From NCBI GenBank assembly GCA_943368365.1, contig CALRKZ020000001.1, forward strand, positions 29,128-93,127: 64,000 bases of DNA. Reading direction: 5' to 3'. The translations under genes were made by a program, and so were the position numbers. Positions 3,966-56,717 of the stretch are shown here, piece by piece. This DNA comes from Mesorhizobium carmichaelinearum. GTDB lineage: Bacteria > Cyanobacteriota > Cyanobacteriia > PCC-6307 > Cyanobiaceae. The notes under the pieces were generated by a model, which saw nothing but the letters and a program-made list of their open reading frames with translations, was not told where the DNA came from and made no database searches. Each line of letters opens with the position of its first letter. Position 1 is the stretch's first letter.

Positions 3966-6599
<2,634 letters not shown>

Positions 6600-6610
6600 G
6601 GACCAACCAA

Positions 6611-6643: not shown

Positions 6644-6677
6644 TGGAACGGGACGGCCGGGGCCGACGAGCCATTGA

Positions 6678-11361: not shown

Positions 11362-11642
11362 AACTCGCGCCACACGAGCCAGTAGGCCAGGTAGCCCACG
11401 GGAGGGGCTAGGAGCAGGGGTAGGAGGGCCAGCACGCCGATGCTGGCCGAGCTCCAGAGCATCAGGCCCACGCACACGGCGAGATAGGCCAGCAGCAGGG
11501 CCGCCACCAGCACGGGCCGGCTGGAGAGGCGCTGGCGCCAGCGCAGCGCCAGGCGCTCCCGGCGCACGCGGCTGAGCTGGCTCCGCGGCACGAAGGCCGA
11601 CCAGTCGGCGGGCGAGCCGGGCCCGGGGCGGCGGCGGGCCAT
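11352..11642 (-). CDS. Small membrane protein (96 aa, two predicted TM helices)
   Basis: Hydrophobic stretches VLVAALLLAYLAVCVGLMLW and IGVLALLPLLLAPPVGYLAYWLVW. Its ATG shares one base with the HlyD stop (TGATG). Confidence 0.5.
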   Translation of the reverse strand: MARRRPGPGSPADWSAFVPRSQLSRVRRERLALRWRQRLSSRPVLVAALLLAYLAVCVGLMLWSSASIGVLALLPLLLAPPVGYLAYWLVWREFHE

Positions 11643-19789: not shown

Positions 19790-19947
19790 TCCACCGCCAG
19801 GGCGATGCCCCGGAAAATAGGCCAGGTGGCACTGGCACGTCGGTGACAACGCCAGCGGGATGGTCGGCGGAGAATGCGGGCGTCGATCGCGAGGCCGCCG
19901 TGCGCCCACTGGAGCCGCCCCTGGAGGCCACGGAACCCTCGGCCGCG

Positions 19948-39995: not shown

Positions 39996-40385
39996 TAAAC
40001 CATGCCCTCACGAGGCGGCCACGCGGCGAACAGACAGCAGTAGAAGGCAGAACCCCGCTGGGATAACCGCCGCGCTGGCCACAGGCAAGCGATCCGAGGA
40101 CGATCATCGGCGGACAGTCGCGCTCTAAGCCAAGTCTCAGATTCGTCGATTAACGCCTCCATAACCTAGATTTTCACGAACTTCGCTCGAGTTTTTGACT
40201 CATGCCCCTCAGTCATCACTCAGTCACATTCTTGTGACCAGTTGCATTCAGCTGCGTCCAATGAATCCGCACGCCGGATCCACACTGGCTCATTGTTTCC
40301 TAGATGCTGACGAAAAGCCATCATCAACGTGAGCCCAAGTCGAGGTCCAGTTCAAGAACTTTCCCGATCAACACTTCACGAGAGG

Positions 40386-40943
40386 ATGAGACAAGTCATT
40401 TACGTTTGTGGAGCTTCTGGGTCCGGCAAGACAAGTCTTGCTCTTCAGTTTTCAGACGTTGCCTATGTGATTCATACCGATCATTTGGCCTTGGTGGCTG
40501 CCATGCGCCTATGCCCATTCTGCAAGCCAGGCTCAGCGGGCGATTGGGACTTATGGAAAACGCTGTTGACACACACCAGCGCGATTGAAGCCTTGCATGC
40601 CTCCTTCCTTCAGTCCTATCCTGATTGCCTGTCTTCACCAAGACCTGTGATCATTGAAGGCACAATCTTGGTTTGGGATCAATGGAGAGATGCTTTGCGA
40701 ACCGGCCTAATGATGGCGGGCCTCAAGATCATCAAGGAAACCCTCCTATGGCTAGCCCCTCCTCCCGGCAAGGTATACACGAATATACAACAAAGAGGCA
40801 TCAACAACGAACATGCCAAGACATTAGCCCAAGTCGAAGAGTCCTGCCAAGTCTATTCCGCCCTTGCTCACAATCCAAACATTGAGAGGTGCGACAGCTA
40901 TTTTCATGCTGAAGGTAGAATTCAAAGCTTAGTCAACGCCTAA
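40386..40943 (+). CDS. P-loop NTPase / kinase-like protein
   Basis: Walker A motif VCGASGSGKTSL five residues after the ATG at 40386. AT-rich. No closer family recognised. Confidence 0.5.
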   Translation: MRQVIYVCGASGSGKTSLALQFSDVAYVIHTDHLALVAAMRLCPFCKPGSAGDWDLWKTLLTHTSAIEALHASFLQSYPDCLSSPRPVIIEGTILVWDQWRDALRTGLMMAGLKIIKETLLWLAPPPGKVYTNIQQRGINNEHAKTLAQVEESCQVYSALAHNPNIERCDSYFHAEGRIQSLVNA

Positions 40944-41319
40944 GATCACAGCGCCAGCCCGCAAGACGCGAAACGCACTCCAGCACAAGCGCAACAGACG
41001 AAATGATCGTCGTAAATGCTCAATAGAATACCAGGACCGGATTACTCGGTGCTGCATTGCAAGGCTGGACCAAGCCGTCGATCCTGGCCTCTCAGGTCCC
41101 GTGATGAATCGCTCCGCTATTGATTAATGCTGATTCATTGAGAAGGTATCATCAAAGCGGGCACCGCAGCGATGCCGCGCTCTCTACTCAGCTTGAGCTA
41201 TGCAGATTGCGTCTAACCCATAAAGCTCTAAGCCGCGGCTCACCGGATTCAAGAATGGCTCTTTCCGGAATGCAAGTTTCACACCTTACCTTTCATCCGG
41301 GCATGGCCAGTGAGACTGG

Positions 41320-42393
41320 ATGGGAGATCAACATCTGCTGGCCCGCGCCGGCGGAGTTCTTGTCAAACCACGGCCGGGCAGAATTGGCTGGGCATCCTTC
41401 GTCGACAGCAATATGGTCTTTCGGCAGCGGCCGAGATATCTCAAAGCCATGTTCCAGGATCTCTGTCTGCGCAGAATTGGGCCTACGCGTCTGTTGCGAA
41501 CCGGGAAGGGACCGTCCGTGATGCTTGACCCGGGAGGTTCGCCCGTTCTGGCTCATTCTCTTGTCATCGAGCTCAGTCGCAACGCGGAGAAAGCCAAGGC
41601 CCATGTTCGTCAGCTGGCGGACGATGCGCTAAAGGAATCGCCGGAGCCTGAGTTCAGAGTTGAAGGATCTGTCTATTCAGCATGCAATGAAGGGGCAGCC
41701 ACCTGGGGGCATTGGATTGGACATAATCTTCCCCGAGCGATGCTCTTTCTCGAGCACGTTCCTGATGGGCGCATCATTGTGCCTGAAGCTTATATGGCCA
41801 AGGCATCATCATTTCTGGATCTGATGGCTCGAGCAGGCATCGAATCATCCAAGATCGTTGCAGCACCTCACCGCTGCTCCATGCTCCTCGATGACTGCGC
41901 GTTGATTGATCTGCCCTACCACGAAGGGGTTTTCCATCCCATTCTTGCCGAAAAAATACGGCATCTGCAGCCAGCAGCAACCCATGGCAACAATCAACGC
42001 CACTTTGTACCACGAAATTCGTCCGATCGCTCCATCAGCAACGCAGACGACATCGACAGAGTTCATGCTCAGTACAATGTCAGCAAGGCCGCGATTGATG
42101 TGACCAGCCTGGCCAGCCAGGTTGCAGCCTGGTCCAGCTGCAGCACGATGATCGGCATCCTGGGAAGCGATCTGAGCAACATGGCCATCGGCAGACCGGA
42201 GTCAGTCTGCTCGATCACGCCACACTGGTTTGGCGATATCTTCTTCTATGGATTGGCAGCCATTCTTGATGTTGAATGGAATGAATACTATTGCGGCACC
42301 AAGGTTGCGCTTCGGGAGCCTGTTCATCGATCAACGTTCATGGTGAATGCCAATGATTACGGCGCTTTTCTCAAGTGGTGTCTGGGAAATTGA
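41320..42393 (+). CDS. Glycosyltransferase family 61-like (DUF563) protein
   Basis: ATWGHWIGHNLPRAMLF (HW...lpR motif) and RHFVPRNSSDRSISNADDI...LASQVAAWSSCSTMIGILGSDLSNM match the GT61/DUF563 layout. The start is uncertain. Confidence 0.5.
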   Translation: MGDQHLLARAGGVLVKPRPGRIGWASFVDSNMVFRQRPRYLKAMFQDLCLRRIGPTRLLRTGKGPSVMLDPGGSPVLAHSLVIELSRNAEKAKAHVRQLADDALKESPEPEFRVEGSVYSACNEGAATWGHWIGHNLPRAMLFLEHVPDGRIIVPEAYMAKASSFLDLMARAGIESSKIVAAPHRCSMLLDDCALIDLPYHEGVFHPILAEKIRHLQPAATHGNNQRHFVPRNSSDRSISNADDIDRVHAQYNVSKAAIDVTSLASQVAAWSSCSTMIGILGSDLSNMAIGRPESVCSITPHWFGDIFFYGLAAILDVEWNEYYCGTKVALREPVHRSTFMVNANDYGAFLKWCLGN

Positions 42394-42491
42394 TGAGGCG
42401 AGCTGTCTGGGGCGTCACTTCTTCGAGCCCGAGTCGCCTGCCCGCATCTCGCAGCTAAGGTTCGTCCTGCTGGGCGCTGCCAAGGCAGGAC

Positions 42492-45086
42492 GTGTTCTCC
42501 CCTCACCTGCGCAACGAACTCCACAACGCCCTGGACCTCCAGCGCCAGGGACGCCTTGACGCCTGCCTCAACCAACTCAGCGCGATCGCCGAGCATCATC
42601 CAGCTCTGATCGGCATCGCAGTGGCCAGGCTTCAGAGTCTTCGTTCACTCGGTAGGGCCAACGAGGCGGACGCCACCCTCGCCGCGCTCCAGCAGCGCCA
42701 TCCAGGTTCCTTCGAGGTCTCTCTGGTGCTGGCGGATGCCCGCCGAAGGGCCGGGCATTTCACTGAAGCCGCCGCGCTCTGCAGGGGCGTTCTCGAGCAG
42801 GTGCCCGATCACCTGGGTGCCCGCATCGCCCTCGACGCATTGCCGCCGGGTTCGCTTGAAGCCTCTTCGGATCCGCTGGGTCAACTGGATCCGCTGGATG
42901 CACTGATCGAGGCTGGCGAACGGGCCTATGCCAACAACCTGTTCAAGGCTGCCCTGGATCAGTTCCGCCAGGCTGCGGCGATCGCGCCCGATCACCTCGA
43001 TCTCCAGGTGGCCATGGCGCGTTGCTTCCGCCAGTTGTGGGATCTCGAGGCCGCCGCCGCGCTGCTCCATGGCGCGCTGGAGCGCGATGGGTCGTTGTTC
43101 TCGGCCATTCTCGGCATGGCGGAACTCCATGCCTGGAAAGGCGAACACGAGCAGGCCGTTCCCTGGTACCGGAGGGCGCATGAAGCCCAACCCGCCAACC
43201 CGGCGCTGTTCGCGGCTCTGATCGGCACCTTGCGCCAGGCCCAGCGCCATGGGGAGGCCAGCGAGCTGATGGCCGCTCAACTCGAAAAGCATCCAGGCGA
43301 TTCTGGGCTGCTCGCGGCCAAGGTGGAACTCGACAGCGCCTCCGGACGCGATGCCGAGGCCCTGGCAGCCTCGATGCAGCTGATGGGCCTCCCTGAGCCC
43401 ACCATGGCCCAACAACTCCTGCACGCCTCGCTGCTGCAGCGCAATGGCCAGGGTGAAGAAGCGCTGGCCTGGCTGGAGTCCCTGCCCAGCAACGGCGACA
43501 AAACCTGTGAAGCTCGCCTCTGGCAGGCCCGTGGCCAGCTGCACTGGGAAGCCGGCCGCCTCACGGAAGCCGTGGAGGCGCTCCTTCAGGCGGTGAACAG
43601 CAATCCCACGGAGCCGGAGCACGCCGTGGTGCTCGGGAATCTGCTGGCCGATCTGGCGGCACTGGAGGAAGGTCTGGATGTGCTCGCCAACTCCGAGCGG
43701 CTGATCGCCTTGGAGCAGGGATTGAGAACCCAGCCGTGGATCCAGTTCATCAAGGTGCGCTTCTTCCGTGCGGCCGGCGAGATGGAGGCGGCCCTGGCGA
43801 TCGCGGAAGGCCTCTGCAACGACCCCGGCGTGGGGTTTGCCGCCCGCTTGCAACGGTTCGAACTGCTCTGCCTCTCCGCAGATGAACGGGCGGAGCTGGC
43901 ACTCGAAGGCCTTGACCCCATCGAGCCAGCCCAGAAGCGTCTGGCCCTGTTCGCTCGTTGCGACTGGCTTTCGAGCCACTATCGCTTCGATGAAGCACTC
44001 AAGACTCTCCTGCCCCTGCTTGAAGCGGAATCCCTCGATCTGGTGGCCGCCGAACGGGCCTGCCTGCTGCAGACCCTGGTGATGGACATCGAGGCGGCCC
44101 AGGACCTCTTCTTCCAACTCCGCCGCGCCAAGCAATCGAGCGGCAATCCCCGCCTAGCGGAAACTGCATGGCATGGCCTGCACCGCTGCCTGATCGAGGA
44201 GTTCCACACCAATCAGTTCGCCCTTGCGCGGATCCGCGCCCTGGCAGCCGAGCTGCCTGATCAGCGCCTTCGCCGGCTGGCGACGCTGTTGGCCGAGGAA
44301 CCCTCCTGCTCGGCAGCCGCGCTGAGCCTGCTCATCGCCGCGCGGCAAGCCGGCCGGCTGTCGTCGTGGAGCACTGCGCCGGTGGCCGCCGATGGTGGTG
44401 AGCGCATCCCCCATCGCGTCTTCCAGTACTGGGACACCACGACCGTTCCGAACGGCGTGCGCTCCCTGATGCAGAGCTGGCCACAAGCGAACCCCTCCTT
44501 CGAACATCAGGTCCTTGACCGCGCTGCAGCCGCCGCCTTTCTGGCCGAACACACGCCACCGCTGGTGCAGAAGGCTTTCGCCGCGGCGATTAGCCCCGTG
44601 CTGCAGTCCCATCTCTTCCGCTACGCCTGGCTCCTCCACCACGGTGGCCTCTATGCCGACGCCGACACCCGCTGCCGGCAGTCCCTATCGAACCTCATGA
44701 ACCAGGGAGTCAACCTCCTGTTGCACCAGGAGGAGCACGGCGCGATCGGCAACACCCTGATCGCCGCTGTTCCTGGCCATCCCTTCCTGGCGGAAGTCCT
44801 GGAAACGGCCGCACGCCTGGTGCTGGAGGAACAGGCCAGCAACCCCTGGTTTCTGAGCGGATGCGGGGTGCTGACCCAGGTGTTCACCAGGCACTACGGG
44901 CACCTCATCGCTGATCCCCAGGCACTACAGCCTGCAGGGATGCGGCTGCTGACCAGCTACCAGCTCAGCCGTCACGTGAGCCTCCACCTCAAGGCACCGG
45001 TGCGCGTGAGCGAGGCGGGCTGGTCGTCGCCGCTGGGGGCCGAGAAAGCAGCAAAACGGCTGGTTCAGGTGCGGCGCTCGGGCTGA
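42492..45086 (+). CDS. TPR-repeat protein fused to a GT32-type (DXD sugar-binding) glycosyltransferase domain
   Basis: About 600 aa of TPR-like repeats. They are followed by [18 protein letters not shown]...[23 protein letters not shown], which fits the Gly_transf_sug pattern with DAD as the DXD motif. Confidence 0.75.
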
Positions 45087-45175
45087 TCACCCCCGGACTC
45101 AGCCGCAACCGGGGTGGGGAGCACCAAGCCCTTCGGCGATTCGTGGTACAAGAGCCGCGCAACCGTTGGTCTCGC

Positions 45176-46084
45176 ATGGTCCCCGACCCCCTCCCGGTGA
45201 ACACACGCCGGGGCATCATCCTGGCCGGGGGTTCGGGCACGCGGCTGCATCCGATCACCCAGGCGGTGAGCAAGCAGCTGCTGCCCGTCTACGACAAGCC
45301 GATGATCTACTACCCGCTCAGCACCCTGATGCTGGCGGGCCTGCGCGAGATCCTGGTGATCTCCACCCCCCGCGACCTGCCCCAGTTCCAGGCCCTGCTC
45401 GGCGACGGTTCCGCCTGGGGGATCTCCCTGGCCTACGCCGAGCAGCCCAGCCCCGATGGCCTCGCCCAGGCCTTCCTGATCGGCGCCGAGTTCCTCGCCG
45501 GTCGCCCCGCCGCCCTGATCCTCGGCGACAACCTCTTCTACGGCGGCGATCTCTCGCGCAACCTCCAGGCCGCCAATGCCCAGGCCACGGGCGCCTCGGT
45601 GTTCGCCTACCGGGTGGCCGATCCCCAGCGCTACGGCGTGGTGGGCTTCGATGAGCAGCGGCGGGTGGTGTCGCTGGAGGAGAAGCCCGAGCGGCCCGCC
45701 TCCAACTACGCCGTGACCGGCCTCTACTTCTACGACGCCGATGTGGTGGAGCTGGCCCGGCAGGTGAAGCCCTCCGCCCGCGGCGAACTGGAGATCACCA
45801 CCCTCAACCAGCTCTACCTGGATCGCGACGACCTGCGCGTGGAGCTGCTCGGCCGCGGCATGGCCTGGCTTGACACCGGCACCTGCGACTCCCTGCACGA
45901 GGCCGGCAGCTACATCCGCACCCTCGAGCACCGCCAGGGCCTCAAGATCGGCTGCCCCGAGGAGGTGGCCTGGCGCCAGGGTTGGATCACCGATGCCCAC
46001 CTCGAGGTCCTGGCCGCACCGCTGCGCAAGTCGGGCTATGGGGCCTACCTGGAGAACCTGCTGCAGGAGGGCCGCACCCCATGA
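45176..46084 (+). CDS. rfbA: Glucose-1-phosphate thymidylyltransferase
   Basis: [53 protein letters not shown] is a near-canonical RmlA N-terminus. Confidence 0.93.
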
Positions 46085-47040
46085 CCCTGCCTTCCGCCCC
46101 CCTGCTCGTGATCGGATCCCAGGGCCAGGTGGCCCGGGCCCTGCAGCGACTGGCTCCCCACCGGCTACCCGGCCGGCCGCTGATCGCCGTGGGCCGGCCC
46201 GCGCTCGATCTGGCCGCCACCCCCGCCACACTCGAGCCGCAGATCGAGGCCCTGCTCCACGAGCACGAGCCCGCCCTGGTGCTCAACGCCGCCGCCTACA
46301 CCGCCGTCGACCGGGCCGAAAGCGAGCCGGAGCTGGCCCAGGCCGTGAACGGCACCGCCGTGGGCGTGCTGGCCCGCTGCTGCGCACACCGCCAGCTGCC
46401 CCTCTTCCACCTCTCCACCGACTACGTCTTCGACGGCGGCGGCGAGCAGCCCTGGCGCGAAACCGATCCCACCGGCCCGCTGGGGGTGTACGGCGCCAGC
46501 AAGCTGGCTGGCGAGCACGCCCTTGGCGAGGCGGGCGGCCCCCATCTGCTGCTGCGGGTGAGCTGGGTGTTCGGCCAGGAGGGCGCCAACTTCGTGCGCA
46601 CCATGCTGCGGCTGGGCGCGCAGCGGCCGGCCCTCTCGATCGTGGCCGATCAGATCGGCGGCCCCACCAGCGCCGAAGCGATCGCCGCCACCTGGCTGGC
46701 CCTGGCCGAGGCGGCGGTCACCGATCGCTCCCCGCTCGACCCCAAGGCCCCCTTCCCCTGGGGCACCTATCACTTCGCCGGCACTCCCGCCGTGAGCTGG
46801 TTCGCCTTCGCCACGGCGATCTTCGAAGACGCCGTGGCCCTGGGCCTGATCGAGCAGGCCCCCACCCTCACCCCCATCCCCACCAGCGCCTATCCCACCC
46901 CGGCGGCCCGCCCCGCCAATTCCCGCCTCGACGGCACCCGCTTCCAGCAGGCCTTCGGCCTGCCCCTGCCCGACTGGCGCAGCGACTTGCACACCTGCCT
47001 CCAGTCCTGGTCCACCACCCCCACCAACCCCGCCGCCTGA
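46081..47040 (+). CDS. rfbD: dTDP-4-dehydrorhamnose reductase
   Basis: [11 protein letters not shown]...[13 protein letters not shown] are RmlD catalytic-region motifs. ATGA overlap with rfbA. Confidence 0.88.
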
Positions 47041-48122
47041 TGTCCGCCCCCACCCGCCATCTGCTGATCACCGGCGGTGCCGGCTTCATCGCCGGCAACC
47101 TGGTGCACCACTGGGCCGCCACCCACCCCGGCGATCGGATCGTGGTGCTCGATGCCCTCACCTACGCCGGCAACCGGGCCACCATCGCGCCGTTGATCGA
47201 GGCCGGCCGCATCCACTTCGTGCACGGCGACATCGGCGATCGGCCCCTGGTGGATGCCCTGCTGGCCGAGCACGCCATCACCCACGTGGCCCATCTGGCG
47301 GCCGAATCCCACGTGGATCGCTCGATCACCGGCCCCGGCGCCTTCCTCGCCACCAACGTGAACGGCAGCTTCACCCTGCTGGAGGCCTTCCGTGCCCACT
47401 GGCTCGCCGCCGGCTCCCCCGACGCCTGGCGCTTCCTGCACGTGAGCACCGACGAGGTGTTCGGCAGCCTCGAACCGAACGATCCGCCCTTCTGCGAAAC
47501 CACCCCCTACAGCCCCCGCTCCCCCTACGCCGCCAGCAAGGCCTCCAGCGATCACCTGGCCCGCGCCTGGCAGCACACCTACGGCCTGCCGGTGCTGGTG
47601 AGCAACTGCTCCAACAACTACGGGCCCTATCACTTCCCCGAGAAGCTGATCCCGCTCACGCTGATCAACATCCTGCTGGGCCGGCCCATCCCCGTGTACG
47701 GCGACGGCTCCAACGTGCGCGACTGGCTCTACGTGGAGGATCACTGCCGGGCGCTGGAGCGCATCCTGCTGGCCGGCGACGTGGGCCGCACCTACTGCAT
47801 CGGCGGCTGCAACGAGGTGGCCAACCTCGATCTGGTGCACCTGCTCTGCGATCTGATGGACGAACTGGCGCCCGAGCTGCCGGTGCGGCCCAGCCGGGAG
47901 CTGATCCGCTTCGTGGCCGACCGCCCCGGCCACGACCGCCGCTACGCCATCGACGCCGGCCGCATCCGCACCGAACTTGGCTGGGAGCCCCAGGTGACCG
48001 TGCAGGAAGGCCTGCGCCGCACCGTGCAGTGGTATCTCGCCAACCGCGCCTGGTGGGAGCCGCTGCTCTCAGCCGAATACGCCAGCTATCTCGAAACCCA
48101 GTACGCCGCCCGCCTCGCCTGA
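47040..48122 (+). CDS. rfbB: dTDP-glucose 4,6-dehydratase
   Basis: LLITGGAGFIAGN, HVSTDEVFG, PYAASKASSDHL and NCSNNYGPYHFPEKLIP. The start shares one base with the rfbD stop. Confidence 0.93.
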   Translation: MSAPTRHLLITGGAGFIAGNLVHHWAATHPGDRIVVLDALTYAGNRATIAPLIEAGRIHFVHGDIGDRPLVDALLAEHAITHVAHLAAESHVDRSITGPGAFLATNVNGSFTLLEAFRAHWLAAGSPDAWRFLHVSTDEVFGSLEPNDPPFCETTPYSPRSPYAASKASSDHLARAWQHTYGLPVLVSNCSNNYGPYHFPEKLIPLTLINILLGRPIPVYGDGSNVRDWLYVEDHCRALERILLAGDVGRTYCIGGCNEVANLDLVHLLCDLMDELAPELPVRPSRELIRFVADRPGHDRRYAIDAGRIRTELGWEPQVTVQEGLRRTVQWYLANRAWWEPLLSAEYASYLETQYAARLA

Positions 48123-48123
48123 G

Positions 48124-48693
48124 ATGCAGATCGTTCCCCAGTCCATTCCCGAGGTGCTGCTGCTGCAGCCGAAGGTGTTCGGCGACGCCCGCGGCTTCTT
48201 CGTGGAAACCGCGCGCCAGAGCGTGCTGGAGGAGGCCGGTATCCCGCCGCTGGTGCAGCACAACCAGAGCCGCTCCGGCCAGGGGGTGCTGCGCGGCCTC
48301 CACTACCAGCTGGTGCAGCCCCAGGGCAAACTGGTGCGCTGCTCCAGGGGCAGCGTCTTCGATGTGGCCGTGGATGTGCGCCGCGGCTCAGCCACGTTCG
48401 GCCAGTGGGTGGGCGCCATCCTCGATGACGTGAACCACCACCAGCTCTGGGTGCCACCGGGCTTTGCCCACGGCTTCCTGGTGCTCTCGGAAACGGCCGA
48501 CTTCTGCTACCTCTGCTCGAACTACTACCACCCCCCCTCCGAGCAGGGGATCGCCTGGGATGATCCCGAGCTGGGGATCCAGTGGCCCCCCCTGCCGGAG
48601 GGGGTGACGCCCCAGCTCTCCACCAAGGACCTGGCCAACCCCACCCTTGCCAACCAGGAACCTCAGCGGCTGCCGACCATCTCAGCCTCCTGA
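48124..48693 (+). CDS. rfbC: dTDP-4-dehydrorhamnose 3,5-epimerase
   Basis: VFGDARGFFVE, VLRGLHYQ, KLVRCSRGSVFDVAVDVRRGSATFGQW and PPGFAHGF. Confidence 0.93.
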   Translation: MQIVPQSIPEVLLLQPKVFGDARGFFVETARQSVLEEAGIPPLVQHNQSRSGQGVLRGLHYQLVQPQGKLVRCSRGSVFDVAVDVRRGSATFGQWVGAILDDVNHHQLWVPPGFAHGFLVLSETADFCYLCSNYYHPPSEQGIAWDDPELGIQWPPLPEGVTPQLSTKDLANPTLANQEPQRLPTISAS

Positions 48694-49625
48694 ACGGCCG
48701 CCCTGCGCATGAGCGCTTCGAGGGCCGTGCGCAGGGGAGAAGGCAGCTGGCGACGGAATTTGATCCTCGGCAGCGCCATCTCGGCCATCACCGGCTCGCT
48801 GCCGTATAGCTGGAGATAATCGGCATGGTTGTCCCATACCTGCCTGGGCACGTTGTCGACGAACGATTCAACCGGCAGCCCCTCAGCCCAAAGGATCGTG
48901 TGGGAGTTCAGTTCGATGTTGTAGTAAACCAGGCACGGTTGATCGATCCACTCTTCGAGTTTGGTGTAGGTGATCGTGCGTCCATTCACCAGCGCCGAGG
49001 CCTGCACCAGATGCCCCTCGAACAGCACGGCATGGTCGGGGCTGAGCATCAGATCACGTTCGGGCAAACGCTGGCCAAGGGCACCGGCCGTGATCCGGAT
49101 CGGCAGCCCACCAGACCAGCTCAGCGGCATGGGGTGGTGCCGGGTGATTGACACGAACCGCACGCTCTCGATCCCATTGGCCGTGATCACCCGTTCACCA
49201 GGCTTGAGGGATTCGATCGGGCGTGGCCCTTCAGGGGTGGCGATCAGAGTTCCCGCCAGCATGCAGATGGTGAGATCTTGCTCCAGGAGTCGGCCTAAAA
49301 CAGTATCTTTCTTAAACTCTGTATTGCTAGCAAGAAAGAACTTATCATCTATCTCAAGAACAATCGCACCACTAGAAGGGAAGAATCCCACATATTCCAG
49401 TTTCGATTTGTCATCGAGATCAAATGGCAAGTCATCATCATCATTCAACTTCGGAAGTGAAATCCTAACATCTTCATCGACTGTAAATATTTTGTCTTCT
49501 CCCTTTTTCCTTTCCGTAATACGAACTGATTCGGATTTTGTAATGTCTTGACTGGCGACTTGGTAAACCTCTGATTTGGGATCATACTTCAACAGATAGA
49601 AATAGTCGTAAGTAGCGGTGGCCAT
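48663..49625 (-). CDS. Hint_2 / bacterial intein-like domain protein, copy A (intact)
   Basis: A 120 aa AT-rich N-terminal module comes first. It is followed by CMLAGTLIATPEGPRPIESLKPGERV..., AGALGQRLPERDLMLSPDHAVLF and HTILWAEGLPVESF. The 3' end overlaps rfbC by 31 nt. Confidence 0.8.
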   Translation of the reverse strand: MATATYDYFYLLKYDPKSEVYQVASQDITKSESVRITERKKGEDKIFTVDEDVRISLPKLNDDDDLPFDLDDKSKLEYVGFFPSSGAIVLEIDDKFFLASNTEFKKDTVLGRLLEQDLTICMLAGTLIATPEGPRPIESLKPGERVITANGIESVRFVSITRHHPMPLSWSGGLPIRITAGALGQRLPERDLMLSPDHAVLFEGHLVQASALVNGRTITYTKLEEWIDQPCLVYYNIELNSHTILWAEGLPVESFVDNVPRQVWDNHADYLQLYGSEPVMAEMALPRIKFRRQLPSPLRTALEALMRRAAVQEAEMVGSR

Positions 49626-49760
49626 GGCCTAGGTCGACTCGAGAGGAGTGCAACCTTTCTAAACAAGGTGAAGAGCGGCGCACCTAGGGATAAGGATGAG
49701 ATCCCTGAGCAGGTCATAGGAATCACTCGTTTACACCATAAGCAAGTTTTCACGATATTA

Positions 49761-49800
49761 AAAGACACAAGAAAGCCCAGACCCTCGTAAAGAGTCTGGG
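49761..49800 (-). terminator. Rho-independent terminator-like hairpin after Hint copy B
   Basis: The minus strand reads cccagac-tctttacgagg-gtctggg followed by ctttcttgtgtctttt. It lies 30 nt downstream of the stop at 49830. Confidence 0.45.
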
Positions 49801-49829
49801 AGTTCAATCGGAGCAAGGTGATCACTTCA

Positions 49830-50746
49830 TCACCTGAGCGCCAGCTCACGCTCACGGCTGGTCTGCTGAGGGATCTGAAGAACCAGCCGAAGAGCGGCAG
49901 GCAACTGCCGGCTGAACTTGATGCGAGGGAGGGCAAGATCCTGGATCGGTAGATGAGCACCGCAAAGGGAAAGATACTCCTCGTAGTTGTCCCAAGTGGA
50001 TCGGGGCACATTGTCGGCAAACGTCTCAACCTCAAGCCCCTCGGCCTTGATGATGGAATGCGCCTCCAACTCGATGTTGTAATTCACGATCCTCTGATCC
50101 TTGGGCTACTCTTCGAGCTGAGATCGCTGGATGGTGGATCCGTTGATCAGCGTAGAAGCATGGACGAGATGACCATCGATCACGATGGCATGGTCACCGG
50201 AAACGAGGAGATCGCGCTCAGGCCCAGCGGCGCCCAGGGCACCACCGAAATCCGAACGGGCAGGCGATCCCCCAGGGCCAGCATGAAGGGGAGGTGAACG
50301 GTCTGGCTGACGAAGTGCACCGGCAGGGCCCCGGCCTGGGTGATCACTAGATCCCCCACAGCCAGAGTTTCGTCGGGCCGTGAGCCCTCGGGAGTGGCAA
50401 TCCGTGTGCCAGCAAGGAAACAAACTTCGATATGAGTTCTGCTGGTTGTTCCCGATAGGTCATTTTGGAGAGTTGTATCATCGGATAGCAGGTAGTAGGT
50501 GCCAGGAGGACACTCAACAACAATCCCTTGAGCACTGGCACCGTCATACTGAATGGCGCCGGAAAGTTGCCCGGTTACCGTAAGAGACTCTCCTGGAGTT
50601 GCTATTTCGGGAGAGCTGACATCCCCCGATTCGATGATGGTGGTAGGTTTGTCGCGATTAGCCCTGTCAAAGACCTGCCAAGTGTTAGTAGAGGTGTTGC
50701 AAGTTATATCGTTAGTTCCGCCGTAGGCATCCGAAAGGGCGGCCAT
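49830..50746 (-). pseudogene. Hint_2 domain gene, copy B (one frameshift, one in-frame TAG)
   Basis: The N-terminal module plus EVCFLAGTRIATPEG is in one frame. GALGAAGPERDLLVSGDHAIVIDGHLVHAS is in another, with the shift near 50247..50251. TAG at 50106..50108 sits where copy D has Trp. Downstream comes NYNIELEAHSIIKAEGLEVETF. Confidence 0.75.
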
Positions 50747-51027
50747 GAGAAGGATGGGCGCTTGTGGATGAGGAAGCATGAGGAAATTATAAGTAATGAT
50801 TGAGCAATCACTCGAAAACCGAATTCGGGGCTAGCTGAATCGAGAAAGATGACAAAATGCCGACGCTAAAATCCGTTCTCTCAGCTCTTTTGTTCATGAG
50901 GATGAAAGCAAGTTGACTGGAAAGCAGGCGTCGCCAAACTTCCCTGCGACTGCAAGGCGAGGTCAGCTGGGTCTCTGCACCCAGCAAGGAAAACCTCACC
51001 TTGTGGCTGGCCTGCCTCACTCATCCA

Positions 51028-51164
51028 CCTCCCGATGCCGCCTCTCACCCTCTGTGTGCTTCCGGGGCTCGAGGAGCAGCCTGGCGGCATCACGGCATTG
51101 CTGCGGCTGAACCTGCCCCTGCTGCTCACCGGGGAGTGAGTTGTGGGCCCGGAACTGGCGGCGG
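51028..51164 (+). repeat. Duplicated 5' fragment of the gene at 55557
   Basis: atgccgcctctcaccctctgtgtgcttccggggctcgaggagcag... aligns to 55551..55686. I count about 11 mismatches by hand. It contains a premature TGA. Confidence 0.85.
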
Positions 51165-51256
51165 GGGTGACGCCCCCGCTCTCCGCCAAAGACCTGGCCA
51201 ATCCCACCCTCGCCAACCAGTAGCCTCAACGGCTGCCCACCATGTCCGCCTCCTGA
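51165..51256 (+). repeat. Duplicated 3' fragment of rfbC
   Basis: ggggtgacgcccccgctctccgccaaagacctggccaatcccaccctcgccaaccag... aligns to 48601..48693, including the TGA. It contains an in-frame TAG. Confidence 0.85.
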
Positions 51257-52186
51257 ACGGCCGCCCCTCGCACAAGCGATTCGAGGGCCGTGCGCAGGGC
51301 AGAAGGCAACTGACAACGGAACTTGATCCTCGGCAGCGCCATCTCGGCCATCACGGTCTCGCTGCCATAGAGCTGGAGATACTCCGCATGGTTGTCCCAC
51401 ACCTGCCTCGTCACGTTGTCGACGAACGATTCAATGGGCAGACCCTCGGCACAGAGGATCCCGTGGGAGTTCAGTTCGATGTTGTAGTAAACCAGGCAGG
51501 TTTGATCGATCCACTCCTCGAGTTCGGTAGAGATGATCGTGCGTCCATTCACCAGCGCCGAAGCCGGCACAAGATACCCCTTGAACAGCACGGCATGGTC
51601 GGGGCTGAGCAGCAGATCCCGTTCGGGCAACCTCTGGCCAAGGGCACCGGCCATATCCGGATGGGCAGCCCGTTCGACCAGCTCAGCGGCAAGGGATGAT
51701 GCCGCGTGATCGACACGAACCTCACGCTCTCGATCCCGTTGGCCGTGATCACCCGGTCACCAGGCTTGAGTGATTCGATCGGGCGGGGGCCTTCCGGGGT
51801 GGCGATTCGGGTTCCCGTCAGCAGGCAGATGGTGAGGTTCTCTTGCTTGGGGCTGCCGAGATTGGTGCCCTGACTGTAGTGAGTGTTGTTGGCGAGATAG
51901 AAATTCCCACCCCTCTTCAGAACGATCGCTCCTGTAGCCGAATAAAACCCTTCATACACATAGTTGGTCTTGCCGTCGAGGTCACTGGGCAATCCATCAC
52001 CACACTCCGGCCTTGAATCAACCCTGACATGCTCATCAGCCGGATACCTGACAAATGTTTTGTCATTGGTCGACTCTGTGATCAGAACCGAATCGGACTT
52101 GGACTCATTTTGACTATCAACCTGATAGGATCCAGGATTACGCTCATCCTTCAGGCGATAAAAAAGGCGTAGGTGGCGTCAGACAT
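51226..52186 (-). pseudogene. Hint_2 domain gene, copy C (two frameshifts)
   Basis: The start reads MSDATYAFF, then the frame is lost at a six-base homopolymer run (52160..52165). Restoring one base gives FYRLKDERNPGSYQVDSQ..., parallel to copy A. A second shift lies near 51650. The Hint part is ICLLTGTRIATPEGPRPIESLKPGDRV...HGILCAEGLPIESF. Confidence 0.75.
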
Positions 52187-52380
52187 AGCGGAAGCCTGTG
52201 AACAGGAGTTATATTCACTTTAACCAGCACTCGTCCCGCTTGAGCCATGAGAATCCAAACGAGTCACTGAATCTCTGCCGATAGGTGGCTGAGCCTGCAA
52301 GAGAGATTCGCTGGAAGTGCCTAAGGCTCACCACCACGCCCCTTCGCAAGGAAGATGTCGCTTCGGAGACTCAGGGCCTC

Positions 52381-52417
52381 ACAACACAAAAGCCTTGCCC
52401 CATGAATGGGACAAGGC
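52381..52417 (-). terminator. Rho-independent terminator-like hairpin after Hint copy D
   Basis: The minus strand reads gccttgtccc-attcat-ggggcaaggc (one mismatch) followed by ttttgtgttgt. It lies 43 nt downstream of the stop at 52460. Confidence 0.5.
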
Positions 52418-52459
52418 CATGGAAGAAAGTGAGTTGGTTGCCTGAGCGGCACTCAGATG

Positions 52460-53380
52460 TCAGACAGTTGCCAATTCACGCTGGACAGCGGACTGATCCA
52501 TCGATTGGAGCTTAAGTCGGAGCGGGGCGGGAATCTGACGGGAGAACTTGATCCGGGGCAGAGGCAGTTCACGGATTGGCGCCTCACTTCCATAGAGCGC
52601 CAGATACTCTTCGTAGTTGTCCCAGGTTTTCCGGGGCACGTTGTCGACATACGACTCCACCTCGAGACCTTCGGCGCGAATGATGGCGTGCTCCTCAAGC
52701 TCCACGTTGTAGTAGGTGATGGAGGGGGTGTCTTGCCAATCTTCTGCTGAGGTGCGAACGATGGTCGTGCCGTTGATCAGCGCTGAAGCGTGGATGAGAT
52801 GACCATCCACCACGATGGCGTGATCGCCGGTAACGAACAGGTCACGCTCGGGGCCCGCCTGCCCGAAAGCACCAGCGCTGATGCGAATCGGGAGAGCGCC
52901 CGAGAGGCTCAGCACCAAGGGATGACTCACGGTTTGCGAGATGAATCGTACGGGCCGGAGGCCGTCCAAGCATCGAATCATCTGACCAGGCTGGAGGGCC
53001 TCAACCTCGATGGGACCCTCAACGGTACCGATCAACGTGCCAGCAAGGAAGCAAACAAATGTGCCTTGGCTAGCATTGGTGCTGAAGTTGACCTCAGTCC
53101 CTGCGGGAATGGCAGTATTTGAAGCTACATAGAAAGTAGATCCGGATTGAAAAATGAGAGCATTACCACTACTTTTTCCGAGATAGATCACTGAGACTGC
53201 CGTGCCTCCGTTGATGCTAAGCGTCACAGCCTCGCCCGGGGCCAGCGATGAATTGGAGCTGGTTGTCTCGGTGACAACAGCATTGCCACCACCGGACAGA
53301 TCGGGGCCACTTGTTGTCGTCTTGGTGCTAGTACCAGGAGCCGAAGAAAGATAGATGTTATTGAACCCGAAAGAAGCCAT
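52460..53380 (-). CDS. Hint_2 / bacterial intein-like domain protein, copy D (intact)
   Basis: A 109 aa Ser/Thr/Gly-rich N-terminal module comes first. It is followed by CFLAGTLIGTVEGPIEVEALQPGQMI, AGAFGQAGPERDLFVTGDHAIVV and HAIIRAEGLEVESY. Confidence 0.8.
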   Translation of the reverse strand: MASFGFNNIYLSSAPGTSTKTTTSGPDLSGGGNAVVTETTSSNSSLAPGEAVTLSINGGTAVSVIYLGKSSGNALIFQSGSTFYVASNTAIPAGTEVNFSTNASQGTFVCFLAGTLIGTVEGPIEVEALQPGQMIRCLDGLRPVRFISQTVSHPLVLSLSGALPIRISAGAFGQAGPERDLFVTGDHAIVVDGHLIHASALINGTTIVRTSAEDWQDTPSITYYNVELEEHAIIRAEGLEVESYVDNVPRKTWDNYEEYLALYGSEAPIRELPLPRIKFSRQIPAPLRLKLQSMDQSAVQRELATV

Positions 53381-54014
53381 GAGAAACGAAAAAACGGTTG
53401 CCGTTGGACCCGGGGAAGACAGGCCTACACGACAGAATACTGACGAATCCTAAGGGGATTTCAAGGATCAGGACAGGCGGGCCTGGTGTTGTCTGCTACC
53501 AAAGGTCGTGGTTTTCTTGATTTGCAGACCTTCTCAAGCAAGAGGACAGCGGGATGACCCAGGAATCCTTCCCTTGATCCCGTGACGCGCTCCGTTCCGC
53601 TGCAGGCAGCCGCCGTCACGGATGGGCCGGCCATCGACTGCTTGGTCGCCTGGGCAACTTCCCCGGCACCTCCAATTCCAGGCTCCGGAACTGGACCCCA
53701 TCAAGGCTGTCCAACCCTTGTGGACAACAGTGGGTGAGGCGATCGAAATCAGCTCCAGCGATGCGCTTGGGCTGGGGCATCGCCGCATGGTGGTGATGTG
53801 GCACGGGTCGCCGCCTCGGATTAGTCGCTGGGCATCGCTCTCAAGTCCCGGTGGGCAGCAGCTTGGCCACCTGGGCACTCACGCCAGCCGCTCATCGAGA
53901 CTGAACAGCTTGAAGCACACCAGACAGGGTTGGGGCAGACCTGCGGCCTTGAGATCGTGGAGGGGCCAATCGAGGAACCAGGAGGATGGCGCGCTGAGGT
54001 GATCTCGAAGTCGC

Positions 54015-54239
54015 TCACAGATCGCGGAACGCCGACTCATCCACCGGGCTGCTCCACTCGCTCAGGCCGCTCTCCAGCCCATGGAGATAGGCCAGATCCA
54101 ACGGCGTCTCCGCCCGCACTCGCTCCGAGCCGTCCTCCAGCTCCCAGCTGAGCTGGTCGCCCTGCATCAATCCCAGGGCCTCACGCACGGCCTTCGGCAC
54201 CGTGACCTGCCCCTTGGCAGTGAGTGTGGCGACGTCCAT
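54015..54239 (-). CDS. AbrB/MazE/SpoVT-family antitoxin-like DNA-binding protein
   Basis: MDVATLTAKGQVTVPKAVREALGLMQGDQLSWEL is the swapped-hairpin beta-barrel motif (kGQvTiPk.iR..lgl..Gd.l). Confidence 0.7.
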   Translation of the reverse strand: MDVATLTAKGQVTVPKAVREALGLMQGDQLSWELEDGSERVRAETPLDLAYLHGLESGLSEWSSPVDESAFRDL

Positions 54240-54334
54240 CCGTGGCCAACCCATCCGATCGCCACCCTAGAGCCAAGGCCGCCTTGCTTTAGGGCGTCCT
54301 TACGCGCTTGCCCCCCGCCGTTTCCACCCAGCTG

Positions 54335-54464
54335 GGCACCACCGTGTCGGAGCTGGAGGATCGGCTTCGCATCCTCGATGCCCTCGACATCCCCACCCGC
54401 CACCCGGATAGCTCTTCGCCAAGCCCGTGCGCTCGTCGACGCAATCCGTGATGCGCTGGCCTGA
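54335..54464 (+). pseudogene. HEPN-domain C-terminal remnant (frameshifted)
   Basis: LEDRLRILDALDIPTRHPD is in one frame and ALRQARALVDAIRDALA in the next. Together they resemble the RYPD...A..l...v end of HEPN toxins. No N-terminal part is present. Confidence 0.35.
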
Positions 54465-54798
54465 TCCCGTCGAAGTGATGCTCCAGCTCGACGCCTGGGT
54501 GGGGGAGCAGGCGACCCGTGTGCCGTCCCTGGAGCAAGTGGCCATCTTCGGCAGTGATGGCCGGGGCACCGCTGGAGTCGGCAGCGACCTCAACCTCCTG
54601 CTGATCGATGCACAAGCCAACGGACCCCAGCACATGAGACAGGTGAGCTGGCCTCTGGAGCGGCTGCCCCTCAGTGGCGACGCGCTCGTGCTCAAACCCG
54701 ACGGGTACGAGGCCCTGATGACGGGCGGATCACGGTTCGCCGCGGAGCTGCAGCGTGATTCCCGCTGGCTGTGGTCACGCCCCAGCTCCGTCCCCTAG
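54451..54798 (+). CDS. Nucleotidyltransferase-domain (MNT-type) protein
   Basis: VAIFGSDGRGTAGVGSDLNLLLI matches the GS..RG.....SD.DLL pattern of minimal nucleotidyltransferases. Confidence 0.6.
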   Translation: MRWPDPVEVMLQLDAWVGEQATRVPSLEQVAIFGSDGRGTAGVGSDLNLLLIDAQANGPQHMRQVSWPLERLPLSGDALVLKPDGYEALMTGGSRFAAELQRDSRWLWSRPSSVP

Positions 54799-55433
54799 AC
54801 CTGCCAGATTTCCCTCAGGCGGAGAACCAGCCCGGGGAACAGGGGCCCCGCCTCCAGCTCGGATGGGGCCTCCAGGCGTTGGGGGGTGCCGCTAGGGCTG
54901 CCGCCAGCGGGCCAGATCTCCACAGCCTGCTGTTCGGGGATCAACAGCCAGCCCAGTTGGACCCCATTGGCCTGGTAGGGGCCATCTTGCGGCGCAGGGC
55001 GGAGAGGCCGCGGGGGCCTTCGTCGCCGGCACTGGCCAGCTCCACCACCAGATCGGGGCAGAGCGGGGGAAAGCCGCGCCGCTGCTCGGCAGTGAGCGCC
55101 TGCCAGCGCTTCTGGCTCACCAGCGCGGTATCGAGGCTCAACACCGAACCATCGGGCAGGCGGAAGCCCGTGGAGCTGTCGAACAGCTGGTAGGGGAAGC
55201 CCGCTGGAGCGCACCGCGATCCAGAGCAGGGCGCCGAGGGTCTGGTTCCTGGCGCCGGTTTCACCACCGGTGGGCGTGATGTGGATGAGATGACCATCGG
55301 CGGAGAGTTCGAGCACCGCCTCGGGGTTCGCAGTGCACACCGCCGCGAATTGCTCGGTGCTGAGCCGCAGATCAGCGGGCAGGTGCAGAGGCGCCAGAGC
55401 ATCGGCCCGGGTGGCTGGAGATGCAGGCGCCAT
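54795..55433 (-). pseudogene. Uma2-family (DUF820) endonuclease, two frameshifts
   Basis: Three frame pieces read consecutively: LSTEQFAAVCTANPEAVLELSADGHLIHITPTGGETGARN, then YQLFDSSTGFRLPDGSVLSLDTALVSQKRW...PDLVVELAS, then ANGVQLGWLLIPEQQAVEIW. Confidence 0.75.
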
Positions 55434-55556
55434 GGCCCCAGCGAGCTTGGTTTTCAGGCTAGACGGCTTCCTGGTGCCCGCAGAACCGGCAGTCATCACG
55501 TGGCGAGTGCCTGGAAGGCAGCTACCACTACGGTCACCGTCGCCCGCAGCTCCTCC

Positions 55557-56717
55557 ATGCCCGCCCTCACCCTCTGTGTGCTTCCGGGGCTCGAGGAGCA
55601 GCCGGGCGGCATCCCGGACTTGCTGCGGCTGAACCTGCCCCTGCTGCTCTTCGGGGAGTGGGTGGTGGGCCCGGAACTGGCGGCGGCGCTCGTGCCCGAA
55701 CTGCGCACCACCGACGCCGACCGCCCCCGCCTCGACGACCTGCTGCGTCAGGCCACGGTGCGCACCAGCAGCGCCGCCCTCGTGCTGCTCAGCGGCGCCG
55801 TCGCACCCACGGCGGCCTGGGCCGACGGGGTGGGCGAACTGGCCCTGCGCGATCCGCCCGTGCTCGCCTGGGGCCGCGCCTGGAGCCGCAGCGGGCCCGA
55901 GGCCGGGCTCCGGCTGGATCCACCCGCCGAGCCCAGCTGGATCCTGCTGCCCCGTGGCGCCTGGACGCCGCCGCCCGCCCTGGCCGATGCCCTCGCTGCC
56001 GATCCGCCCGCCGCCCTCCCCTGGCTGCTGGAACTCGCCGCTGAACGCGGCTGGCCCGCGCTCGACGCCACCGAGGCGGTCCCGCTGGATCGGCGCGGGC
56101 CCCACCCCATCGCCACACCGCAGCCCGCTCCGGCGCCGGCGGGGCCGCAGGCCGGGATCCAGCGGTTGCCCATCACCCCGGCCGACGCGCCCCGCCTCAC
56201 CCTGCTGCTCCAGGGCTCCGGCGCCGATCAGCGGCGCTGGCGCGACGCGCTGGAGGGGTCCTCCGAGCTGGGCATCGAGCTGCTCCCCACCGAGGCGGGC
56301 GACTGGAGCCAGGCCAGGGGGGAGTGGATCGGCTGCCTGCCGGCGGCCGCCGACCCGCCACCCCTGGCGCTGCTCTCCGCCCTGGTGCGGACCTTCCGAA
56401 ATCCCTGGATCGATGGGGTGGTGCCGCAGGACTGGCCACCGGTGCTCCGCCGCGGCGTGCTGGAGCGGCTTGGCCCCGCCGCCTTCGAGGAGCCGGCGGC
56501 CCGGGCCGCCGGCCTGCAGCTGCTCCAGCTGCCGCTGCTGGCGGCCAGCCCCCCGGAGGAACCCGATCCCCTCTGGCAGGCGGCCGCCCTCCAGCTGGAG
56601 CGGGCCGAAGCCCTGCTGCTCGCCCAGCAGCGCCGCATCGCCCAGCTGGAAGCCCAGCTGGGCCAGTCGCGCCAGGGGCTCACACCACCGGAAACTTCCA
56701 GGCCAGCAGCCAGCTGA
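55557..56717 (+). CDS. Hypothetical Pro/Ala-rich protein (source gene of the 51028..51164 fragment)
   Basis: ATG at 55557 lies inside ORF 55281..56717. The duplicated copy begins at the same ATG, which supports this start. C-terminal coiled-coil-like LQLERAEALLLAQQRRIAQLEAQL. Confidence 0.5.
   Translation: MPALTLCVLPGLEEQPGGIPDLLRLNLPLLLFGEWVVGPELAAALVPELRTTDADRPRLDDLLRQATVRTSSAALVLLSGAVAPTAAWADGVGELALRDPPVLAWGRAWSRSGPEAGLRLDPPAEPSWILLPRGAWTPPPALADALAADPPAALPWLLELAAERGWPALDATEAVPLDRRGPHPIATPQPAPAPAGPQAGIQRLPITPADAPRLTLLLQGSGADQRRWRDALEGSSELGIELLPTEAGDWSQARGEWIGCLPAAADPPPLALLSALVRTFRNPWIDGVVPQDWPPVLRRGVLERLGPAAFEEPAARAAGLQLLQLPLLAASPPEEPDPLWQAAALQLERAEALLLAQQRRIAQLEAQLGQSRQGLTPPETSRPAAS

Follow-up and report, generated by a model that had tools for sequence, protein, structure and literature searches.

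The 64,000-nucleotide (nt) stretch of DNA analysed here (the window, on whose forward numbering all coordinates are given) belongs to contig CALRKZ020000001.1 of assembly GCA_943368365.1, which carries the name Mesorhizobium carmichaelinearum and is placed by GTDB in the Cyanobiaceae. It holds four Hint_2 genes in tandem on the minus strand at 48663–53380, here named A to D, of which two are intact (A and D) and two are broken (B and C). Their products are B-type bacterial intein-like (BIL) proteins of the Hint_2 family, as set by the definitions given in reviews and by profile and fold matches, and consist of a divergent N-terminal domain (N-domain), a Hint domain that opens with a cysteine (Cys-1), and a conserved C-terminal tail. 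We consider it likely that the array is a set of short-form B-type BIL paralogues in which a thioester formed at Cys-1 frees the N-domain or hands it on, probably outside the cell. The locus is therewith a well-documented example of a known family, and not a new system.

The identity of the shared C-terminal module, which a preliminary description of the locus had proposed from the sequence, is agreed upon by Pfam, structure prediction and fold comparison. Hint_2 (PF13403, curated gathering score 28.4 bits) matches both intact proteins far above its cutoff, at 3.2e-32 in A (112.4 bits, residues 120–257) and 2.8e-28 in D (99.6 bits). Three of four fragments of B and C score 41–58 bits (2.9e-10 to 1.5e-15), the fourth, an 85-amino-acid (aa) piece of B, falling below the cutoff at 15.2 bits (0.029). 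The AlphaFold2 (AF2) model of A, built on a 55-sequence alignment, is that of a Hint protein (predicted local distance difference test, pLDDT, 91.4; predicted template modelling score, pTM, 0.73), with an all-beta N-domain whose strands lie within residues 3–100, a Hint core at 121–254, and tail helices at 267–274 and 296–319. In a Foldseek search of the PDB its top matches (probability 1.00, template modelling score ~0.6–0.7 on target) were Tetrahymena BUBL BIL2, the gp41-1 and DnaB mini-inteins, Vint, the A-type BIL of C. thermocellum, and Hedgehog. The PDB holds no structure of a B-type BIL, and sequence search of it reaches only the N-terminal block of the C. thermocellum protein (2lwy).

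Cys-1, the nucleophile by family, falls at position 121 of A and 110 of D, where it had previously been placed, and the three motif blocks quoted in the preliminary description were found in all four copies. In an alignment of 55 homologues the invariant residues of the Hint domain are C121, G125, T126, E138, G143, P188, D191, H198, L212, G215, E238, A247 and E253, and the conservation pattern of Hint and tail is repeated in 25 modules from Cyanobium-clade genomes. Block B of A reads S195-x-x-H198, and E238, H242 and E253 fall within the C-terminal blocks; per copy, the block-B motif is SPDH in A and C, SGDH in B, and TGDH in D. The residue before Cys-1 is Ile or Val (Ile120 in A, Val109 in D). 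At its other end the domain closes with ...AEGLPVES-FVDNV, in which the Asn position of VDN is variable across the family (N/T/D/Y/S) and precedes a Val. Neither the four copies nor the family alignment shows the C-terminal His-Asn of inteins or a +1 nucleophile, and splicing is therefore excluded, in line with the earlier expectation.

B-type BILs carry the intein motifs minus the C-terminal one, are located in non-conserved proteins of bacteria, within their variable regions, and are reported to self-cleave in vitro at the N- and/or C-terminus instead of splicing (PMC7765530, PMC5874633, where the original work is cited as Amitai 2003 and Dassa 2004). They share with A–D the Hint fold, the N-terminal Cys, the block-B histidine, the missing C-terminal His-Asn, and a setting in variable proteins of extracellular type; like the family of A–D they are dominated by Alphaproteobacteria, including Rhodobacterales, and by analogy autocleavage without splicing would be expected here also. 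As judged from the review descriptions, nothing essential differs in A–D. The family of A–D includes the Rhodobacterales Fuscovulum (formerly Rhodobacter) blasticum, Paracoccus and Ruegeria, its members being labelled by NCBI as 'Hint domain-containing protein'. Judging from the reviews, it is probably the family of the Rhodobacter BILs that were used in cleavage experiments. PF13403 is over-represented, together with RTX, in fast-responding Rhodobacteraceae (PMC12487129), and in another paper it is listed among families without a known function. The earlier statement that the family has no assigned function holds for its role, which is given neither in the papers found nor in current annotation more than 20 years after description, but not for the family itself, which is already known as B-type BIL and PF13403. 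What A–D add is incremental: a dedicated N-domain of ~110 aa, a tail with invariant Asn and Arg, a recombination boundary at Cys-1, and a slot adjacent to rml genes in the Cyanobium/Synechococcus 5.2 clade.

The Hint fold and a sequence-recognisable N-terminal block are also shared by canonical inteins and A-type BILs (such as 2lwy), but these differ from A–D in their C-terminal His-Asn, +1 nucleophile, conserved host protein that is re-ligated, and homing endonuclease. The best structural match of A, Tetrahymena BUBL BIL2 (PDB 6y75, 6tmm), has a sequence identity to it of ~10%. Unlike A–D it is eukaryotic, has an A-type-like C-terminal Asn (crystal construct C1A-N143A), and carries a ubiquitin-like passenger, the N-terminal Ubl domain, which it transfers onto lysines (PMC8616854).

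In the mechanism proposed for A–D, the peptide bond before Cys-1 (Ile/Val-Cys) would undergo an N-to-S acyl shift after folding, aided by the block-B histidine, and water or a different nucleophile would then resolve the thioester. In this way the N-domain would be cut off, and possibly transferred, with Hint and tail left behind. The array itself probably evolves by duplication and by recombination at the Cys-1 codon, combined with fast N-domain divergence, in a strain-variable glycan island.

The four N-modules are divergent paralogues of one all-beta family that is a dedicated partner of Hint_2, not free-standing cargo. A profile of this family, built without the window sequences, scores 36.6 bits on A, 33.2 on B, 28.3 on C and 40.1 on D, and the maximum among 1,000 shuffled sequences was 10.5 bits. 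The domain covers ~110 aa from Met1, with an 'MA.[FY]...[FY].Y' start, F..GE.I.V and Y.G...G segments, and an F.L.SN end, the last being the loose F/Y-L-N-type motif that had already been noticed. Modelled alone, the N-domain of A has eight strands (AF2 pLDDT 91.3, pTM 0.83). When 1.84 billion representative proteins were searched with the N-domain profile, only 58 matches were obtained; most are proteins of ~300 aa with the domain at residues 1–100, and Hint_2 follows directly in all six that were checked with Pfam. Multi-repeat matches (P0131, P0141, P0150, P0164), which carry Calx-beta, Ig, PKD and OB repeats and no Hint_2, were set aside as likely non-specific.

Within the array, pairwise identity is 18–24% between N-domains, but 46% for A/C, against 52–57% between Hint domains (A/C 86%) and 44–63% between tails (A/C 86%). 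The N-modules are also AT-rich, as described, with a GC content of 0.40 in A and ~0.50 in B–D (range 0.40–0.51) versus 0.59–0.63 for Hint and tail; that of the rml genes is 0.71. The polarity of a variable N-terminus joined to a constant C-terminal processing module, the reverse of polymorphic toxins, is supported. The view that each gene carries a different, exchangeable module stands in part: the boundary between A and C at Cys-1 and other passengers elsewhere speak for exchange, but the modules, low as their identity is, form one domain family (28–40 bits).

The boundary is seen most directly at the DNA level. By blastn, A and C are 88% identical over 683 nt (48592–49274 versus 51155–51836), in a tract that begins within a duplicated 3′ remnant of rmlC (~70 nt) and ends three codons upstream of Cys-1. 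As the remnant lies 3′ of C, the A-type 3′ segment was copied along with its rmlC flank. Nei–Gojobori estimates between A and C gave a proportion of synonymous differences (pS) of 0.79 for the N-domain, which is saturated, with a nonsynonymous distance (dN) of 0.39; for the Hint domain the synonymous distance (dS) was 0.30 and dN 0.07, and for the tail dS was 0.39 and dN 0.06. With the N-domain saturated and a dS of ~0.3 downstream, the halves of the gene differ in age, which indicates recombination or gene conversion at the module boundary. A recombination boundary between A and C therefore lies at Cys-1, and the dN/dS of ~0.16–0.25 places Hint and tail under purifying selection. Modular exchange is real at two levels: at this boundary within the array, and in the different passengers of relatives described below.

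The intact and decayed states of the four genes were also as first described, with open reading frames (ORFs) as placed (Table 1). Gene B has one frameshift near 50240–50250 and an in-frame stop at 50106–50108. Gene C opens with an ATG at 52186, but its frame is shifted after codon 8, where one nt is missing from a T-run (52160–52165, T6 versus the required T7), and again by a further 1-nt deletion at ~51654. Over 48906–51073 and 51469–55595, the window is matched at 100% identity by contigs from Logan (runs ERR9580662 and ERR9580664); B and C are real pseudogenes because these independent short-read assemblies reproduce every lesion, and since the contigs span all of them, sequencing or assembly error was ruled out. 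The exact protein of gene D is present in two Logan assemblies, and no record was obtained for the exact protein of gene A or the 199-aa ORF of B in a search for contigs encoding each. Gaps between the array genes measure ~200–480 nt. An Rfam scan of 47000–56000 gave no match, a promoter scan of the array region gave nothing over background, and PADLOC, PHROGs and NCBIfam scans of A and D were without a match.

The NCBI-derived record of the gene D protein (P0122) is 152 aa long, its first residue being the Leu of 'LVLSLSG', within the Hint domain. It omits the N-domain and Cys-1, and the 306-aa product is recorded only from Logan assemblies. Public annotation probably under-calls gene D, with the low GC of its 5′ half perhaps the cause.

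Table 1. Coordinates of the array, its parts, and other features of the window
Feature	Position	Strand	Basis or remark
Gene A	48663–49625	-	intact ORF, 320 aa; N-domain + Hint_2 + tail
Gene A, N-domain (aa 1–120)	49266–49625	-	all-beta, GC 0.40
Gene A, Hint domain (aa 121–254)	48864–49265	-	Pfam, fold search, invariant alignment columns
Gene A, tail (aa 255–320)	48666–48863	-	conserved ~40 aa, then variable C-terminal helix (aa 296–319)
Terminator-like hairpin, directly 3′ of B	49776–49800	-	11-bp stem
Gene B, pseudogene, D-like	49830–50746	-	tblastn, frame translations, Hint_2 on fragments
rmlC 3′-end remnant, duplicated 3′ of C	51155–51225	+	blastn; homologous to 48592–48662
Gene C, pseudogene, A-like	51226–52186	-	frame translations, fragment Hint_2 scores
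Terminator-like hairpin, directly 3′ of D	52391–52418	-	12-bp stem
Gene D	52460–53380	-	intact ORF, 306 aa
Gene D, N-domain	53054–53380	-	
Gene D, Hint domain	52652–53053	-	Cys110
Gene D, tail	52463–52651	-	
rmlA-rmlD-rmlB-rmlC	45143–48693	+	convergent on gene A
rmlC, dTDP-4-dehydrorhamnose 3,5-epimerase	48124–48693	+	Pfam dTDP_sugar_isom 2.4e-67; overlaps A by 31 nt; syntenic anchor of the array, conserved in relatives
MazE/AbrB-type antitoxin gene	54015–54254	-	intact; Pfam
Uma2 fragment	54941–55402		Pfam
GT61 glycosyltransferase gene	41320–42393		in 40000–42500 block
TPR + glycosyltransferase gene	42492–45086		directly after GT61 gene
HlyD-family adaptor gene	11642–13324	-	TIGR01843, 188 bits, cutoff 209
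HlyB-like ABC (ATP-binding cassette) exporter gene	13120–16128	-	N-terminal cyclic-nucleotide (cNMP)-binding domain; NCBIfam TIGR01846, 605 bits, cutoff 726
PpiC-type rotamase-like gene	16125–16913	-	weak match to TIGR04500 peptide-maturation family
ClpB-type AAA+ chaperone gene (Clp_N, AAA, AAA_2, ClpB_D2-small)	3966–6599	+	housekeeping, island edge

The passengers of related proteins bear on where the reaction may take place. Across 23 genomic loci of Cyanobium, Synechococcus and Prochlorococcaceae, found with a profile from an 8-sequence alignment, Hint and tail end proteins with FG-GAP/VCBS repeats, HExxH-containing regions (L004, L009; spotted by eye, with no Pfam match), or small domains such as DUF6973 (matched in L015). 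The same module ends giants of 1,300–2,600 aa with Big_9, Big_12, cadherin-like, He_PIG, Calx-beta, LTD and Exo_endo_phos domains. No N-terminal signal peptide is present in these varied-front proteins of the 23 loci, nor in A–D. Among Alphaproteobacteria, RTX+Hint_2 and LTD+Hint_2 fusions occur, and five proteins (P0047, P0064, P0069, P0080, P0096) combine RTX (PF00353) with a C-terminal Hint_2 and nothing further downstream. In an S. meliloti member, Cys70 is preceded by a twin-arginine-like leader (RRHFIGLAAAAG), and a Fuscovulum member has RTX-like repeats. Extracellular-type sister passengers without a signal peptide, together with the leader of the S. meliloti protein and the repeats of the Fuscovulum one, make action outside the cytoplasm probable. 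Judged from these sequences, the reaction of A–D probably also occurs there, and most plausibly by a type I-like, signal-peptide-independent export, which is the obvious candidate route; genes for a HlyB/HlyD-like pair are present in the window, at 11642–16128 (Table 1).

Beside these members, the plasmid pSMS3-3 of Antarctobacter heliothermus (6016–8588) carries two tandem Hint-domain genes next to IS6 transposase genes, with two IS6 copies upstream. Tandem arrays of the Hint_2 family are therefore also present on Roseobacteraceae plasmids.

Several points weigh against release of the N-domain outside the cell as we propose it. Cleavage of A–D is extrapolated from other B-type BILs and, like export and biological role, is inferred. 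The N-domain gave no significant match in fold searches of the PDB (best E 0.24) and BFVD, and its invariant residues amount to Met1, plus a near-invariant Gly80. With two dead copies among four, the array as a whole is without uniform selection. RTX repeats and a recognisable secretion signal are absent from A–D, and the tail has no match among NCBIfam type I secretion target domains. Within 10 kb of their Hint genes, the 23 related loci are without any ABC or HlyD gene, and none is annotated in 10 sampled plasmid neighbourhoods; the only candidate HlyB/HlyD pair in the window is 32–37 kb from the array. The rotamase-like gene next to that pair (Table 1) is followed by large glycosyltransferase genes (16910–19909 and others).

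Export and cleavage could be more closely coupled than this. RTX proteins have their secretion signal at the extreme C-terminus, and tail and C-terminal helix of A–D could form a type I-like signal which the Hint domain, folding only after export, cuts off its passenger, making the module a self-removing cassette whose whole function is release of the mature N-domain. This would refine the favoured explanation and not replace it, and we hold it possible, if doubtful. It would account for RTX+Hint_2 proteins that have nothing further downstream, for the giants with cadherin, Calx-beta, Big and LTD passengers, which are without a signal peptide and end in the same module, and for a tail that is conserved like the active site and helical over its last 25 residues; the HlyB/HlyD-like pair within the window also fits. 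It sits less well with a tail that matches no known type I target-domain model and is more strongly conserved than is typical of such signals, with the Tat-type leader of the S. meliloti member, and with the linkage survey, in which type I secretion genes accompany Hint genes at 0 of 33 loci (the 23 related and 10 plasmid neighbourhoods). A conceptual likeness may be drawn to the RTX proteins FrpC and ApxIVA, which are type I-secreted, self-cleave after export, and can cross-link their N-terminal fragment; their module, with Ca-dependent Asp-Pro cleavage, is unrelated to Hint in fold and chemistry.

Some of the same observations have to be weighed for a reading in which A–D are cytoplasmic autoprocessing proteins or a decaying selfish relic, derived from inteins and with no extracellular role or no function. 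The missing signal peptide, with no secretion signal identifiable in A–D, the two pseudogenes among four copies, and the ends of many alphaproteobacterial homologues in -AA (judged by eye to resemble an ssrA-type tag) would suit it. However, Hint and tail are under purifying selection, catalytic residues are invariant across phyla, there is neither a homing endonuclease nor a host extein, and passengers throughout the family are of extracellular domain types, which together make this reading improbable.

It is also conceivable that the N-modules are toxins or effectors that the Hint domain frees for competition. The copies are in tandem, some are pseudogenes, and GC is atypical within a variable island, as could be the case in such an array, and enzyme-like N-regions occur elsewhere in the family (the DUF6973 match and the by-eye HExxH regions above). 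Hint domains are, moreover, known as releasing peptidases in polymorphic toxin systems. In those systems, the variable toxin part is C-terminal and has an adjacent immunity gene, unlike A–D, where polarity is opposite and no immunity-sized ORFs lie between the genes. The N-domain is without conserved catalytic residues, no toxin-family, PADLOC or PHROG match was obtained, and all four N-modules belong to one structural domain family, so that an effector array is highly improbable. The surface-decoration or effector role suggested in the preliminary description is best regarded as an inference.

The C-terminal flank of the Hint domain is a tail of 63–66 aa that co-occurs with it, with no host protein beyond. 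In the 55-homologue alignment, N266 and R292 are invariant, and conservation reaches 90% or more at D257, R261, D265, E282, P286, R287 and P295. Secondary structure of the tail in the model of A has a pLDDT of 89–96, and the tail matched no Pfam or NCBIfam model. In the alignment, its constraint equals that of the active site, and it is the main unexplained feature. C-termini in the window read …GSR, …ALR and …ATV, and those of some Cyanobium members …LCL or …CLTL. Many alphaproteobacterial members end in -AA (...AAA, ...VAA, ...RAA), which brings to mind a degradation tag of the ssrA type or else a determinant of secretion.

The address of the array is shared with relatives. Hint genes converge on rmlC at the end of rmlA-D-B-C in Synechococcus sp. 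WH 5701 (two in tandem), Synechococcus sp. Cruz-7E5, and a Cyanobium metagenome-assembled genome (MAG), the rml proteins of which are 74–92% identical to those of the window (67% for RmlD of the Cyanobium MAG). All of these rmlC-adjacent Hint genes have the same N-domain (22–33 bits). A wider gene order, of TPR-glycosyltransferase gene, (rml), Hint gene(s) and MazE-like gene, is repeated in further genomes, and in Cyanobium gracile UHCC 0139 the same slot is taken by an 802-aa Hint protein, with an N-region of ~600 aa that has a by-eye HExxH and no Pfam match. Mean identity among nine syntenic short-form genes is 28% for the N-domain and 52% for Hint and tail, and no clear one-to-one orthologues were seen among them between genomes. 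The comparison across relatives that had been suggested earlier, where conserved and syntenic N-modules were to count against variable cargo, therefore gives a divided answer: conservation extends to domain family and address, but not to sequences or copy number.

Besides the intact rmlC that adjoins its tandem Hint genes, Synechococcus sp. WH 5701 has another rmlC-like sequence (L002 4023–4558, 78% aa identity to the RmlC of the window), which is split in two frames and lies ~5.4 kb past those Hint genes.

Tail and address are both used in a further reading, in which transfer would be Hedgehog-like: an envelope acceptor (a glycan hydroxyl, lipid or protein amine) would resolve the thioester, the tail would act as adduct-recognition region, and the N-domains would become covalent surface decorations linked to the rhamnose-glycan pathway. 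Hedgehog/Hog proteins share with A–D an N-terminal domain, a Hint domain and a conserved C-terminal region, with a junction thioester open to a nucleophile other than water, and the succession of N-domain, Hint and ~60-aa conserved tail parallels that of Hedge, Hint and sterol-recognition region (PMC7765530). The invariant polar tail residues N266 and R292, and the precedent for transfer by a BIL in Tetrahymena BUBL (PMC8616854), may be counted in its favour, as may several neighbourhoods: the rmlC|Hint junction is kept in four Cyanobium-clade genomes, no more than 12 kb separates Hint_2 from rml genes on S. meliloti pSymB, as on a Methylosinus plasmid, and an Aureimonas Hint gene lies between genes for a GT2 and a TPR protein. 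Proximity to rml was found in two of 10 sampled lineages (binomial P 0.004–0.09 for an assumed background of 1–5%). Yet the rml-proximal proteobacterial proteins differ from A–D in architecture, glycan genes are missing from seven of the 10 neighbourhoods sampled, and variable genes generally gather in glycan islands, such that proximity may be non-functional. Hedgehog proteins, unlike A–D, have a signal peptide, and Gly at −1 in place of Ile or Val; Hedgehog (6tyy) is a weaker Foldseek match to A than inteins and BILs, and its sterol-recognition region, in common with other known adduct-recognition regions, shows no detectable similarity to the tail. On balance, Hedgehog-like transfer is unlikely. 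Slighter still is the prospect that Hint_2 and tail are a bacterial counterpart of Hog in which the tail, through Asn266 and Arg292, recruits an envelope acceptor, possibly a rhamnose-containing glycan from the adjacent rml pathway, to which the Cys-1 thioester transfers the hypervariable N-domain. Were this true, cyanobacterial surfaces would carry covalent, strain-specific protein decorations that are exported without a signal peptide, through a sortase- and ATP-independent anchoring common to short N-domain proteins and giant adhesins.

For the favoured reading, release or transfer of the N-domain by short-form BIL paralogues, the locus offers a compact and tractable case, with two small intact genes, a dedicated N-domain whose fold is predicted with confidence but has no known structural relative, a tail conserved like the active site, and a conserved address beside rml. 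B-type BIL/Hint_2 proteins abound in Alphaproteobacteria and, according to this analysis, in freshwater and estuarine picocyanobacteria. If the N-domain is released or transferred at the cell surface, this would explain the maturation of a class of adhesin-like proteins without signal peptides, and would point to a variable surface component relevant to the interactions of picocyanobacteria with phages and grazers.

The flanks of the array, described earlier as an O-antigen-type sugar cluster and toxin–antitoxin debris in a hypervariable surface island, were confirmed in the rml genes, the MazE-like gene and the Uma2 fragment, and the array does lie in a variable surface-polysaccharide island. 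The MazE-like gene, which forms the far edge of the variable slot, is kept at 70–86% aa identity within a few kb of Hint genes in at least four related genomes (L002, L003, L004, L020). A partner toxin recognisable by Pfam was not found in the neighbouring ORFs scanned, where 54427–54798 had no match and 54941–55402 is the Uma2 fragment. Hint_2 genes are found 6–7 kb from rfbA/C/B or rfbB/C/D/A clusters on two unrelated replicons of Alphaproteobacteria, S. meliloti pSymB (CP140937.1 1145411–1146253) and pMSC49b of Methylosinus sp. C49; on the latter, a GT61 gene is also near the Hint_2 gene, as in the window. In the window itself, the GT61 gene falls in a block at 40000–42500 with a GC content of 0.52–0.55, versus 0.66–0.78 elsewhere, which is consistent with a horizontally acquired glycan island.

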